DNA from: Sphagnum compactum | Taxonomy: Eukaryota | Direction: 5' to 3' | Assembly (NCBI GenBank): GCA_965153455.1 | Contig: OZ234493.1 | Span: forward strand, 2,108,001 to 2,172,000 | Length of the DNA: 64,000 bases | Part shown: piece after piece, positions 2,636 through 64,000 of the stretch | Layout: every line of letters starts with the position of its first letter | How positions within the stretch are numbered: the stretch's first letter is position 1 | Made by a program: the position numbers and the translations under genes | The notes under the pieces: model-generated | What the model saw: only the letters and a program-made list of their open reading frames with translations | What the model was told of the DNA's origin: nothing | The model's database searches: none

Positions 2636-3960
2636 GTAAGTAGTTGCACTCGCGCAAATTTGGGTGAGAACCCAGAGCAGGCAAGTTTCTAGTAGTGCAG
2701 GAGTTCGCAGGAAGAAAGAGATTCTAACGACACGAGTTCACAGGAAGAAATCGATGCGAGGGCGACGCTGATGATGATGAGAAGAGGTGCCCTCTTGGCA
2801 TCCATCCTCAAGCATGCAGTTACGTAGTCGCAGGGAACGGATTTCTCTCTCTCAAAGAGTTCACAATCTTGTGTCATCTTGTCAAGAGATTCTGTGATTC
2901 CGTGATCATGGGTGGTCAAAAAATCATTGCAAACTTGTGCAATCCAGGAAGAATCCCTGATGTGAGCAAACATTCAAAGTGCAGAAACAAGGGTTGGTAG
3001 CAAATTGGCATCCAGCTTTTGATGGCTCCTTCTTTTGTGATCAAGAAGGTGGTCAAGGATTCTTCTTCTTCTTTGAGTGTGTTTTTTGGGTTCTGAGAAA
3101 TCATGGTTTGCTCCTTTGCAGGACTGAGTGGATTTCTTGTTGACAAACAAAAAAGGGAGCAGAGTATGGGTGCGGAGATTACTACAATCTCTGTCATTGT
3201 TGTAATAGCAGCATAATTAGGGTTTCAAGCAAATTGAAAGGGTGAGAGAATTGTGTCCTTCATTTCTTTTTGTGCCAGAGATTCGATCCTCAGATTCTTT
3301 GTTGCTTAGCTTGAGGATTGTATCCATGTCCATGTATTCATTTTGAGTATGAATGCTTGATCATTGCAACTGGTGACAAAGAAGGCATTCATCATCATCT
3401 CCAGTCTGGCAATCTGTAGAAGTTCAGGAATCCATCTATTTTGTGTTTGTTCGTGAATCCATTCTTCCTGTTTCGAGGCAAATTGGTTGATTGCTGGATG
3501 ATCAAGGGGAAGGTTATGTTTTCATGTGCAAGCTTCTTCTCAATTAATGCAAACACAAAAGAATATTTTTAGTGGGTGATTTTTGTTATCATCATATGAT
3601 TCTGGGTGATGCTCTGTAGTTTGCAGTACTGATCATTTATTCCAGTAGAAAAAAAATTGTAGCTTGTTTTCTTCTTTGTGATTTTTGTTTTACTTGATGA
3701 AATTGAGTTGGATGACAGACGGAAAAAGGGAACCTCAAATTCCTGTTCTGAAGTCATGGAGTATTTGTTCATGTCAGTGTTCTGACAAGGAAGGCAAGAG
3801 CTTTGTATCTCTTGCCATTCTTGTTGCTGGGTTACAAAACAGAGTATTGGGTGGGATTCTGGTCCAAATAAACGGTGAAATTGATGGCAGTATGATGAGT
3901 CTCATCTGTCATGGAGGGTCTGAATGAAGTTGTGTTGCTTTGGGTATTTGAATGTGGCAG
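2636..3960 (+). other. Probable 5'-UTR intron of the TOR1-like gene
   Basis: Strong donor GG|GTAAGT at 2636 and acceptor GGCAG at 3960, one base before the ATG context. The upstream 1700-2630 region is GC/GAA-rich, like a first exon. Confidence 0.5.
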
Positions 3961-56505: not shown

Positions 56506-58618
56506 CTAGTTTCTATGTGTTGCTTTTGCTGCTGCTGCTCTTGCCTGACTTGCATATGATTGCTTTAAGGCACCGTCTTTGGGGTTGATTGCTTTCCGCA
56601 ACTTGATAATGGTCCACACTGTTGCAAATACATGTCCAGCTGTTGCCAAAATTTCTTGTGTTGCTTGACCAGCTGTATATCCAAACCTGGGTATGAGGAG
56701 GGAAAAAAATTGAACTCCTTTAGGGGATTCTCATCTGCTGGGACAGACCTTGATGTGAAGTAGGTCAGAAAATGTTTTGCTCTAAATAGCTATAACAAGA
56801 TGAAGACATTCATATTCTAAAATTTTCAGCTAAGCAAAATATCCAACCATGCAAATACACATCCAAATATTCTAGCATTACTGACAGAACTGCCAGCCAT
56901 TTGAAATACCTCACTTTTGCTTCTATCCATTTTTGCTTATATGCATTTTGACCTAGAAAAGAACTAGAGTTGTTGTAAGCTTTGACATATAGCAATCAAG
57001 AGACACACCTTAACATACCCAAAATAAGGTTTAGTGTGAAGAACTTGTGTTGCTAGAGATGGCATACAACTTTTACCAACCACATGATGAAAATGGGATG
57101 GTGGGTATGCAACCACATCACATGTTATTTTGGCTGCAGGTTCAACAGTTGCATATCCTCTGCTGATGGTAAGTCAACAATTTCCCTATTCAATACTTGA
57201 GACGCAGGTTCATAGTTAAGAGGTTATGTACCTATGGGCAATAATTCTTTGTGTAACCAAAGAGGCAGTCCCCATTATGTCTGTTCCAGCTTTTTCCAGT
57301 GCATCAAACAATTTTCCTGTCCAAACCCATAGGCAAAAATGGTTTAGGAATCTGCTGCTTTTTTTGTGCAGATTGGACAACAACAACAACAATGAAGGAA
57401 TCAAAATTTCATTATCCTACACAAAGGGGGCCATCATAGATCTGCTCAGGAGATTTGTATGAAGAAAGGAAGACAACAACTTTGATAATTCTCGAAAAAA
57501 CCCCTGGCATTATCATCTCATCAATTTTCTCTTTCACCATACACAAGGTAAAAGGGACATACCAAAAGCATCAAGTGAAACCAAAAGAACCTCTCCTGGC
57601 ATGAGCTGGAAGACTTTCTTGCCAATGACTGAGTTGATCATGGACCCAGATAAGAAGCCCACAGTTCGCAATACACCAGACAACACTTTCCTTGCAACAG
57701 TTTCAGTTGTTCTTGACATTTCCCTCAACCTACACAATCCCCACTTACACTACAAACCACTTCATATAAATTGAGGCAGCCAGGCATGCCTTGCAAGCAA
57801 TCAATCAATTGGCAGATCCTTCCTTCAATTCTTTCCCTATAAGGCCACACTTTTACTTAAACAGCGATTGCAGCATTTCAAATCAGGATCCATCAACAAA
57901 AACCAATATTGACAAGACAATATATACCTGTGCAAAGTTTGGATAGTTTGTGAACTGATGTGGCTTGGGGTGTCTGAGGGCTTTACTTTCTTTTCAAAAA
58001 AGACAGACCCATTCTCCAACTGTGTTACTGCCATGAAGCTAAGCCAGAAGATACCCCGGATGATTTGGCCTGATCCAGATGCAATTCCCCTTGCCACACT
58101 ACTATTGTACTCATCCACATCAGGTGCCATGGTTTTCCAAGCCTCTGAATGATTTCCCATCTGCAAGGAATTTTGTTGTGAATTGTTAGTAACACAGTTT
58201 TCTTCATGTTCTGGGTCCTGTTACAAGAGAAGCTCACATTTGTACACCCAATTGTAGAAGTCAAGAACCCCGATCCCACATTCTTTTTCTCAGCCAAATG
58301 TTGCAGACACAAGAAATTGTAATCCAAAACGACGTTGCAACAGATTAAAAAATTCCTTTTTTTGGTCAAGAGGCAAGACCTCTTCAAGATACAACAAAGG
58401 GGAAAGAAGCAAACCACAACTAACTGCAAACCCTTAACCCTAACCCTAAACTACAAAGTTCTTCAAAAAACTAACTAGAAAGAACGACTTGTCCAGGAAA
58501 AACTTTAGACCTCTTTTGGAGATTGAGTCGAGACTCTTCCTGCGGCCTTGTCGACCTCCGGCATACTGGAAGAAGAAACTCGATCGTCCTCCGCTGCGTC
58601 CTGTGCCAATTCCGACAT
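56506..58618 (-). CDS. ERD7-like: Senescence/spartin-domain (ERD7-like) protein, ~257 aa, 5 exons
   Basis: Phase-consistent GT-AG exons 58618-58511, 58160-57928, 57729-57563, 57316-57232, 56686-56506. Motifs 'AWKTMAPDVDEYNSSVARGIASGSGQIIRGIFW', 'MPGEVLLVSLDAFGKLFDALEKAG', 'HRFGYTAG...ATAGH...WTIIKLRKAINPK'. Exon 1 is less certain. Confidence 0.88.
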
Positions 58619-58840
58619 TGTTTGGGTGTTTGTTTTTTTTTTCCCTCCCTGGTTTGATTCTCTAGTAATACGCTGTTCAGGTTGAGGACTCCAATCATTT
58701 GCTGCTACTAAGTTCAGGCTGTTGCTTACTTATAAGGTGTAGTGTCGTCCTTGCTACTGTTCCTTGGCGCTTGCTGTGGTCGCCACCCAGGATGATGCGT
58801 GTCTGTGCACCCGCCATTTTCTGGTGCCAACAGACTCAAG

Positions 58841-58847: not shown

Positions 58848-59537
58848 CGTGACCGTCTGCAAGGCTCGCCTGTCTTGACGTCTTGACCAGTGTCGACCTA
58901 AACCCTAAACCCTAAACCCTACAACACCCCACAACTGGACCCAGTGGGCCACAGTGAACCAGCACCCACCAGTGCACCATCCACTGGATGGATGATGCCC
59001 ATCCATTATGACTTCAGTTGTGGATGATCCTCAACTGAGTTACTACCTGGTCTCTCATCTTGGTAACCCATTCAATAAAGAAGTAGGTTTAACCTCTCCA
59101 CAGGTAGGTTAAAAAATAGTGGACAACTATGTAAGTAGATAGATGATACATAGTAGGTAGGGGCTGTTTTTACCACCTACCTAGTTGCTAGGTAGTAAAT
59201 AAAGCAAGTGAGCTAACCACCATGGTTAGCTAGGGAACTGGAACCCAACAGAAAATTGTTTCCTCATCACATATCATCCATTCTTGATGGTGCACTAGAT
59301 TTGGAAAATGTCGAAAGGAATAAGAAAAAGGAAGAAGAAAAGGGAGAATTTATAGGATGTCAAGTTAGTTCAAACTAGATGTCAAAATGTCTCCACGTCA
59401 AAAACTGACCATTGTAATACGTTGGCCATATTTTTTCATGTCAAAAATCGATCTCTTTTACAATAGGTTGCTCATGGTGATGGGAGGTGTGTACTAAAAG
59501 GGTGGGAGTCGGGAAATCGTTAAGCCCATGGCTACCA

Positions 59538-59917
59538 TTCGATTTAAGATGGAAGATGTTTGTATCCTTTGCAATGGGATTGAATTTATTTGACATAGAA
59601 AAGTAACCAAGATAGAGAGATGAGGACACTTTCGATTTAAGATGGAAGATGTTTGTATCCTTTGCAATGGGATTGAATTTATTTGACAAAGAAAAGTAAC
59701 CAAGATAGAGAGATGAGGACACTTTCGATTTAAGATGGAAGATGTTTGTATCCTAGGCAAGCAATGGGATTGAATTTATTTGACAAAGAAAAGTAACCAA
59801 GATAGAGAGATGAGGACACTTTCGATTTAAGATGGAAGATGTTTGTATCCTAGGCAAGCAATGGGATTGAATTTATTTGACAAAGAAAAGTAACCAAGAT
59901 AGAGAGATGAGGACACT
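59538..59917. repeat. Young tandem repeat, 4 units of 93, 93, 97 and 97 bp
   Basis: Units start at 59538, 59631, 59724 and 59821 with 'ttcgatttaagatggaagatgtttgtatcc' and are nearly identical. Confidence 0.95.
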
Positions 59918-62589: not shown

Positions 62590-62960
62590 CCTGATATTTT
62601 CGAGACCTGAAATCCCCTACTTCATAGTCTCCGTGTCCCTAACACAGATCCCTCGTTTCTTGAGACCTGGATTTTGTCATCTGTTGCCATTGCTTTTTCT
62701 TCTAGTTCCAAACCTCAGGTCCCGATATTTTTTAAATCTGAAATCTCCTCGTCATGTGACGATAGATTGGCCTCCATGTCCCTAACACAGACAGACCCCT
62801 CATTTCTTGAGACCGAGAATCTCCTCCTCTGCTGCCATTGCAAATTTTCAGGTTTCAATACCTTCGAGACCAAATCCAGGTCTCCTCATCATCTGACGAT
62901 ACCTCCTGTCTCCATGTCCCTAAACAGACAGACCCCTCATTTCTTGAGACCTGAAACGAA
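62590..62960. repeat. Degenerate repeat (~4-5 copies) in the probable 5' leader of the LptF/G-like gene
   Basis: Recurring 'ctcc(a/g)tgtccctaa.acaga...ccctc.tttcttgagacc' and 'ctcctc.tcat.tgacgata'. Confidence 0.7.
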
Positions 62961-63274
62961 CAGACAGACAGACACACACCACGTTTGCTTTAATATATTA
63001 GATCTCTTGCTTTTGTGTTTTTATTTCTTTTGGGTCTTGTGTAATATCTGGATTACACATTTTTGAGTTTTGGGCAAGACTTCAATATGTTTTTGTTGCA
63101 TGATTAGATCTTTCTCACATGATTTAGATCTTTTGTTGTTTTGGTTATCAAAGAATCAAATCAAAATCAAATTTATTACTCAGTAACCCTAAACCCCCCC
63201 TTTTCTTGAATACTAAACCCTAAATCTTTTCCTCTCTTGGAGCTTTTGGTGATGTTGAAGTTGGAATTTCGAAC

Positions 63275-63944
63275 ATGTCTGGGGTTGCTAAGATGATGTC
63301 CAATGCTGATTTTACTTCTTGCCAGTCATTTCATAGAAATACCACTTTCAATCAACTTGGGTCCCCTCATCATTGTTGGAGGTCTTCCAATTCTAGATCA
63401 TATTTTCCACCTCCTCTTTTTCATGCTTACAACCGGCCTTTGTGCCCACAGATTAGCAGAAGAAGTGTGTCTGGCTCATGTGTTGTTGCTTTACAATCAA
63501 GTTTCAGTTCCATTACTGCTTGCACCAAGTTCTGGAGCTTGGTGAATCTTGGAAGTGACAGGTCTCTTGTTGTACTTACAAATCATGCAGTATTTCCATC
63601 TGACAAACAATCTCAACACAACTTTTGGGGTTCATCTGTCAACCCTACATGTTGTTGTTCTGTAAACCCAACTAAGAGATTGCCAATCGAGTTGCCAAGG
63701 AAACCAAAAGTTGAAGCTGTTTTGCAAGAATTTCTTCCCAGAATTAGAAGGAGCTGGACATGGGTGACAACAAACTTGGTCAAACAAATTGCAGAGAAGA
63801 TGAGGAGGATAAGAATACCTGTTTTGGACAGATACATGATGACAGAGATGATGCCTGTGTTTGTGATGGCAGTTGGACTTTGTTCAATCGTGGGAATGAC
63901 ATTGGGTGCACTTGCAGGGCTTGTGCGTGAAGTTGTTGTGTCAG
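63275..63944 (+). CDS. First coding exon of a probable plastid-targeted LptF/LptG (YjgP/YjgQ, Ycf84-like) permease; gene continues beyond the window
   Basis: A ~180-aa Ser/Arg-rich, acid-poor N-terminal extension precedes 'RIPVLDRYMMTEMMPVFVMAVGLCSIVGMTLGALAGLVREVVVSG', resembling the cyanobacterial LptF/G start (DRYxxxE..PF.F.VG.F...G...G.LF.LVR...ESGL). Donor TCAG|GTATGG at 63944/63945. TATA-like TATAAAA at ~62418. Confidence 0.68.
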
Positions 63945-64000
63945 GTATGGTTGCTCCTTTTTTTATTTCTTTGGAATCTTGAGCCCTTTCATTGTAAATC

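Follow-up and report, generated by a model that had tools for sequence, protein, structure and literature searches.

Spliced nuclear genes of Sphagnum suggest that a moss keeps the core of a bacterial lipopolysaccharide pump

Does a moss chloroplast still carry part of the machinery that extracts lipopolysaccharide (LPS) in bacteria? The question is raised by the end of a 64,000-nucleotide stretch of Sphagnum compactum DNA (hereafter the window; contig OZ234493.1 of assembly GCA_965153455.1, positions 2,108,001 to 2,172,000), in which an initial annotation, made from the letters alone, had read the first exon of a nuclear, intron-containing gene for an LptF/LptG-like permease with a transit peptide. 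We call this gene A. Our comparisons of sequences suggest that the moss keeps the core of the bacterial LPS pump and matching lipid A enzymes as spliced nuclear genes of cyanobacterial ancestry, and that chloroplasts may still make and export such a lipid.

Structure, transcription, and family of gene A

Gene A is an intact, transcribed, and spliced nuclear gene for a full-length permease of the LptF/LptG family (PF03739). Its open reading frame opens at an ATG at position 63275 on the plus strand, close to the end of the window, and the complete model has eight exons, seven GT-AG introns, and an open frame of 618 amino acids (aa). Exon 1 (63275..63944, +; aa 1-223) encodes a leader and the first transmembrane helix (TM1) and stops in phase 1 within the Gly codon of VVVSG. 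The GT donor follows at 63945, and the window closes inside the 200-nt intron 1 (start at 63945..64000, +), with the gene continuing beyond it. The remaining exons are given in locus L002, positions 2171001-2181000 of contig C1 in the moss assembly (G000), the window being C1:2108001-2172000. Exon 2 lies at 1145-1260; exon 3, with TM2, the coupling helix, and TM3, at 1369-1508; exon 4 at 1710-1800; exon 5 at 2136-2276; exon 6, with a beta-jellyroll, at 2625-2735; exon 7, with an insertion and TM4, at 3051-3416; and exon 8, with TM5, TM6, and the stop codon, at 3616-3837.

Each of the seven introns is supported by spliced reads from raw stranded poly(A) data (13, 4, 7, 3, 5, 7, and 16, the exon 1 junction being read 13 times), and the junctions are also present in contigs from other RNA runs. 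The first mates of the junction reads all map to the minus strand, as is usual in stranded libraries when the RNA is plus-strand. Altogether, 169 reads from about 1800 million letters cover the gene; two of the RNA sets, X5 and X6, are near-identical here and look like one data set. Read-through of intron 2 is ruled out, as a stop closes the frame. An alternative acceptor for intron 4 (L002 1798-2079) occurs in one raw read and one contig.

Gene A sits on a 37-Mb contig between plant-type genes and has orthologues in the moss Ceratodon and in zygnematophyte algae, with frames intact from Sphagnum through Ceratodon to Mesotaenium. By alignment, its product is 96-97% identical to named Sphagnum proteins, about 49% to the Ceratodon protein, and 43% to that of Mesotaenium. 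Indels of exon 1 in transcripts of relatives are +3 and -3, so that the leader remains in frame. P0167, a database protein, is identical to the model over its whole length; it possibly comes from the same assembly and is not independent.

Bacterial DNA is present in the assembly, and contamination, or recent transfer from a moss-associated bacterium, has to be weighed as the source of the gene. The best PF03739 match in the whole assembly lies among operon-like bacterial genes (C593, L015, 36 kb) and was rejected as contamination; this contig carries lptF and lpxC as well as genes that we take, by their motifs, to be mrdA/rodA-like and dprA-like, and several of its genes are split into two frames. 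For gene A, however, such an origin is refuted by the seven introns spliced in RNA reads, and it is opposed by the 37-Mb contig, the plant neighbors, and the presence of orthologues in Ceratodon and algae. The C593 lptF copy, moreover, falls with proteobacterial LptF, apart from gene A and from a second permease described below. We give this explanation almost no credence.

Exon 1 alone has no Pfam match, so the family call is not provable inside the window, and none of 201 candidates, 392-2000 aa long, is a homologue of it at E<=0.01. In a scan that covered all exons but exon 4, exons 2, 3, and 8 each match PF03739 only (E 3e-6, 3e-7, and 3e-4), and exons 5, 6, and 7 singly match no Pfam family. 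The full protein scores 140.3 bits against PF03739 (cut-off 27.9), over residues 186-614 and profile positions 1-350 of 353. The initial reading of the locus as a nuclear, intron-containing gene for an LptF/LptG-like permease is thus borne out by the downstream exons of an intact, transcribed gene. What had been described within exon 1 is also confirmed, namely a leader with only three acidic residues in its first 135 aa, then LDRY (at aa 184), a helix, and a splice donor. LDRY and TM1 (63824..63913, +) form the start of the PF03739 domain, the motif being followed by MMTEMMPVF and, at aa 195-213, by a hydrophobic helix.

Five PDB sequences match gene A, all of them LptG chains. An AlphaFold2 model from 78 sequences (predicted local distance difference test score, pLDDT, 72; predicted template modeling score, pTM, 0.65) is of low confidence and mostly unstructured over aa 1-141 and then predicts a helix at 146-178 and six membrane helices, with a beta domain (331-430) placed as a jellyroll between TM3 and TM4, the architecture foreseen in the initial annotation. 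When the model was compared with the PDB by Foldseek, ranks 1-10 were all LptF or LptG chains, headed by 6mjp_G (E 5e-14, TM score 0.63 by target length). The Glu of the coupling helix between TM2 and TM3 (E84 in Escherichia coli LptF, E88 in LptG) is E266 in gene A and is invariant at this position across the 78 rows; in E. coli, this residue is tied to R91 of LptB (PMC10094684).

Residues 474-511 form a low-confidence insertion before TM4 that several Sphagnum models share; in Ceratodon and in one Sphagnum model it is shorter. An out-of-frame ATG upstream opens a possible upstream open reading frame of 14 codons that overlaps the main start (63252..63296, +), and database models of other Sphagnum species begin 5-9 codons upstream, in frame.

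A second permease, LptB, and their cyanobacterial relatives

A PF03739 profile search of G000 returned eight matches: three in gene A, two on contig C4, two on a bacterial contig, and one that is weak and has a stop. The C4 matches belong to gene B, a second LptF/G paralogue (C4, L013 5599 to L014 789), modeled as 14 exons with an open 584-aa frame and one GC donor, in a probable GC-AG first intron. Its product is 23% identical to that of gene A and 27-30% to nine cyanobacterial LptF/G proteins, A and B each being 24-30% identical to cyanobacterial LptF/G, and it has the coupling-helix Glu as E248. A match at C6:14319078 (E 2.6), which has a stop and no tblastn match to gene A, was dismissed. 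An Atlas search returned only bacterial PF03739 clusters.

The ATPase partner was found with TIGR04406 as an LptB gene of two exons (93 and 184 bits) on C6. The moss LptB, of 299 aa with a short leader, retains the Walker A motif, the FR of the Q-loop (F90/R91), LSGGERRR, the Walker B Glu, and the H-loop, and its orthologues in Ceratodon, Mesotaenium, and Closterium (286, 279, and 272 bits) lie above the TIGR04406 cut-off of 240. The 120 highest-ranking of 8000 relatives of LptB exon 2 include, as named eukaryotes, Mesotaenium and Closterium, with Ceratodon entering via cluster members, and cyanobacteria follow; no named liverwort, fern, or seed-plant protein is among these 120, which in a word-based search of clustered data does not imply absence. 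Intronless LptB-, LpxC-, and LpxB-like matches on small contigs (C122, C210, and others) were rejected as contamination. The gene adjoining LptB on C6 (L031 242-1439, +) is mitochondrial-carrier-like, a label that we presume from a motif.

Judged by their phylogenies, gene A, gene B, and LptB are of cyanobacterial (endosymbiont) descent. A quick tree of 62 rows puts the permeases with cyanobacteria (Shimodaira-Hasegawa-like approximate likelihood ratio test, SH-aLRT, 100), and in a careful tree of 24 rows drawn from these, A, B, and the plant orthologues join six cyanobacterial-type sequences, three of them named, at 99/100. The permease trees held three alphaproteobacterial permeases; with two of these, the LptF, a grouping of the plant permeases is rejected by an approximately unbiased (AU) test (p=0.0065). 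For LptB, six streptophyte rows join 17 cyanobacterial-type rows (10 named) at 100/99 in a 50-row tree whose bootstrap had not settled (0.960). Of 80 bacterial loci ranked against the Ceratodon LptB, the first ten are cyanobacterial. The cyanobacterial loci carry an LptA-like gene, lptB, and lptF/G in a row, and nine of the ten best have an adjacent lptF/G that scores 172-221 bits against the plant profile, versus 55-66 for four Bacillota loci. The endosymbiont origin first proposed for the gene is upheld by these trees.

A single PF03739 match each is found in genome G001 and seven close genomes, and some other genomes of the sample have two or more. In the Lpx trees described below, seven genomes stand in for cyanobacteria; for six, LptF/G falls inside the clade of named cyanobacteria in the 62-row permease tree, the seventh (G010) being outside the sampling of that tree. 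Most of the cyanobacterial genomes nearest in the trees carry a single lptF/G gene, so that A and B would be a heterodimer produced by a gene duplication later than the endosymbiosis.

Leaders, lipid A enzymes, and the possible cargo

The 183-aa leader of gene A (63275..63823, +) appears transit-peptide-like in composition, with 24% S+T and 3% D+E, and aa 1-141 are predicted to be disordered; both properties would fit a plastid transit peptide. It has no Arg in its first 20 aa, its hydrophobic moment is low (0.36), and an amphipathic helix is predicted at aa 146-178. Low-acid, Ser/Thr-rich leaders occur on gene A, gene B (162 aa), and the Closterium LptB. We think it probable that the proteins are located in the plastid inner envelope and assemble as an LptB2-A-B extractor, with gene A supplying one of the two membrane subunits of a cyanobacterium-derived ATP-binding cassette (ABC) extractor of the LptB2FG type.

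Lipid A enzymes are likewise encoded by spliced genes. LpxC (C15:10668800-10671600, L216) is 55% identical to the nearest cyanobacterial-type row and groups with the cyanobacterial set at 98/94 in a tree of 29 rows. Of the two LpxB genes, placed in a tree of 25 rows, the one on C3 (22825000-22829500, L232) groups with the cyanobacterial set at 100/97, and the proteobacterial-type one on C1 (16179000-16182100, L231) groups with Methylobacterium at 97/86, only two proteobacteria being in the tree. By eye, and by criteria that we assume to apply, the first exon of the C3 gene is Ser/Ala-rich and plastid-leader-like, and the C1 leader resembles a mitochondrial presequence. The two genes suggest separate plastid and mitochondrial lipid A-like pathways. 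In Synechocystis, the lipid A disaccharide core is made by four enzymes (PMC7133116), and the end product of the plant pathway was unidentified as of 2012 (PMC3355754).

As descent does not fix location, the subunits might be sent to mitochondria, or to both organelles, as exporters of the lipid A precursors reported there in plants. Arabidopsis lipid A enzymes are reported to be mitochondrial (PMC3355754 and PMC5741210, citing Li et al. 2011), and the moss does have a proteobacterial-type LpxB; yet all three subunits are of cyanobacterial descent, the AU test rejects the grouping with the two alphaproteobacterial LptF, and the gene A leader, with its low hydrophobic moment, lacks early Arg residues. 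We consider mitochondrial service quite improbable. For the plastid extractor, the cargo would be a lipid A-like acylated glucosamine disaccharide from the cyanobacterial-type LpxC and the second LpxB, to which we give slightly less than an even chance. The fullest form of this reading is that moss and zygnematophyte chloroplasts keep, besides peptidoglycan, a plastid-specific lipid A-like glycolipid made with cyanobacterial LpxC and a dedicated second LpxB; an LptB2FG-type heterodimer, re-invented from a single gene, would export it to the outer envelope over a shortened or unrecognized bridge. This we put forward tentatively.

Several observations weigh against a plastid extractor with such a cargo. 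The Ceratodon LptB leader has only about 35 aa, Mesotaenium models have little or no leader, and targeting is judged from composition. The 14 exons of gene B are predicted, in a model built by hand that uses one GC donor, and A and B fall on one side of a branch only weakly (53/92). Gene A scores far below the NCBIfam equivalog cut-offs for LptF and LptG (77 against 230 bits for TIGR04407 and 89 against 240 for TIGR04408) in a scan that, of the permeases, covered gene A, so that it can be named neither F nor G. A TM1 site occupied by the basic residue Lys in E. coli is not basic in the moss or cyanobacterial proteins, a gappy alignment giving Ala in A, Glu in B, and Ser/Thr in cyanobacteria; a role of the E. 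coli TM1 residue cluster is described in PMC10094684. The search for moss lipid A enzymes covered LpxC and LpxB, and the case for a lipid A-like cargo is indirect, coming from the cyanobacterial-type genes. The reported mitochondrial placement of the Arabidopsis enzymes belongs here as well.

The bridge itself is a further difficulty. Searches of G000 gave no candidate for LptA (queries PF03968 and one cyanobacterial LptA protein) or LptC (PF06835), although the same kind of search recovered only three of the eight exons of A and two of the 14 of B, so that the absence of LptA and LptC is not established. The best LptD-like match is weak (DUF3769, E 0.3) and lies in a spliced gene on C11 (L032 6060-9130, -), which we take, by its motifs, to be of the TGD4/LPTD1 family. 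The partners expected of an Lpt system were thus found in part, as LptB and a second permease, and the trans-envelope glycolipid bridge envisaged in the initial annotation stays a conjecture. We infer that gene A, a member of PF03739, works like LptB2FG; membership of a complete Lpt bridge goes beyond the evidence.

The empty LptA and LptC searches are also consistent with the same plastid LptB2-A-B extractor having been repurposed to move ordinary lipids of the envelope (galactolipids, sulfolipid, phospholipid) or some other amphiphile from one envelope membrane to the other, with TGD4/LPTD1 as a possible recipient. The strong divergence of A and B from each other and from cyanobacterial LptF/G and the altered TM1 charges fit this, and TGD4 and LPTD1, the plant relatives of LptD, act in glycerolipid traffic (PMC12096540). 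However, a cyanobacterial-type LpxB kept beside a proteobacterial one, together with a cyanobacterial LpxC, is most easily explained by a plastid lipid A-like product, and we regard repurposing as unlikely. A retained relic, decaying or non-transporting and serving as a structural element of the envelope or of the peptidoglycan layer, could account for the low expression, the long branches, and the failure to find bridge proteins in these searches. The intact frames from Sphagnum to Mesotaenium, the LptB catalytic motifs, and the coupling Glu speak against decay, which makes a relic very unlikely.

Known systems and neighboring features

The moss set resembles the bacterial LptB2FG(C) LPS extractor (PF03739, TIGR04406-8; PDB 6MJP, 6MIT, 8FRL) in its predicted six-TM and beta-jellyroll fold, the coupling-helix Glu, the presence of an LptB with all catalytic motifs, and, by the gene B model, two permease genes. 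Unlike that system, the moss genes are nuclear and spliced and have long leaders, gene A shares 12-15% identity with the top ten solved chains and lies below the equivalog cut-offs, and LptA and LptC were not found in the G000 searches. The cyanobacterial lptA-lptB-lptF/G operon (e.g., Capilliphycus salinus, L038) provides the nearest bacterial relatives in all trees and has the same YPEY motif before the jellyroll, whereas in the moss two strongly diverged paralogues, located on separate chromosomes, stand in place of the one lptF/G of G001 and its seven neighbors in the Lpx trees. The plastid TGD1-2-3, TGD4, and LPTD1 proteins are likewise an endosymbiont-derived system of envelope lipid traffic, TGD1-3 being of the Mla type, an ABC family different from LptB2FG. 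TGD4 and LPTD1 are plant LptD relatives, and the excerpts of the two sources name no plant LptB, LptF, or LptG for that system (PMC12096540; bioRxiv 10.64898/2026.07.15.738633). Chloroplast outer envelopes are described as galactolipid membranes, unlike LPS-bearing bacterial ones (bioRxiv 10.64898/2026.07.15.738633). The Arabidopsis lipid A precursor pathway (LpxA, C, D, B, K, KdtA) also consists of nuclear plant Lpx genes (PMC3355754), but is mitochondrial by report and is listed with one lpxB, while the moss has two, one of them cyanobacterial.

ABCI proteins are poorly resolved in PMC10513242, whose available text makes no mention of 'Lpt', and a word search for 'Lpt' or 'lipid A' gave nothing in PMC10784329, which describes a peptidoglycan toolkit conserved across bryophytes. 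Among the papers listed by our literature search, none deals with plant LptB, LptF, or LptG, although mention in subscription papers or supplements is possible. Automatic annotations already label some of these plant proteins as LPS export subunits; the family label is therefore known, and no publication with the combined reading turned up in the literature searched. We presume that lpxA/lpxC and LptF/G-like genes occur in Cyanidiales plastid genomes, which would lower the novelty for algae. Word searches of PMC4316638 and PMC3607583 gave no hit for these terms. Gene A, intact and expressed, and the genes for LptB, the predicted second permease, and the cyanobacterial LpxB provide named knockout targets in a model moss and make the old question of lipid A in chloroplasts directly testable; if the reading is true, an Lpt extractor is at work in a eukaryote.

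Gene A is flanked upstream by a Senescence-domain gene (window 57837-58700, -) and downstream by a convergent NPH3-family gene (L002 5100-9650, -). Short tandem or dispersed repeats, apparent both in the DNA and in ORF translations, lie at 59441-59760 and 62590-62960 of the window.
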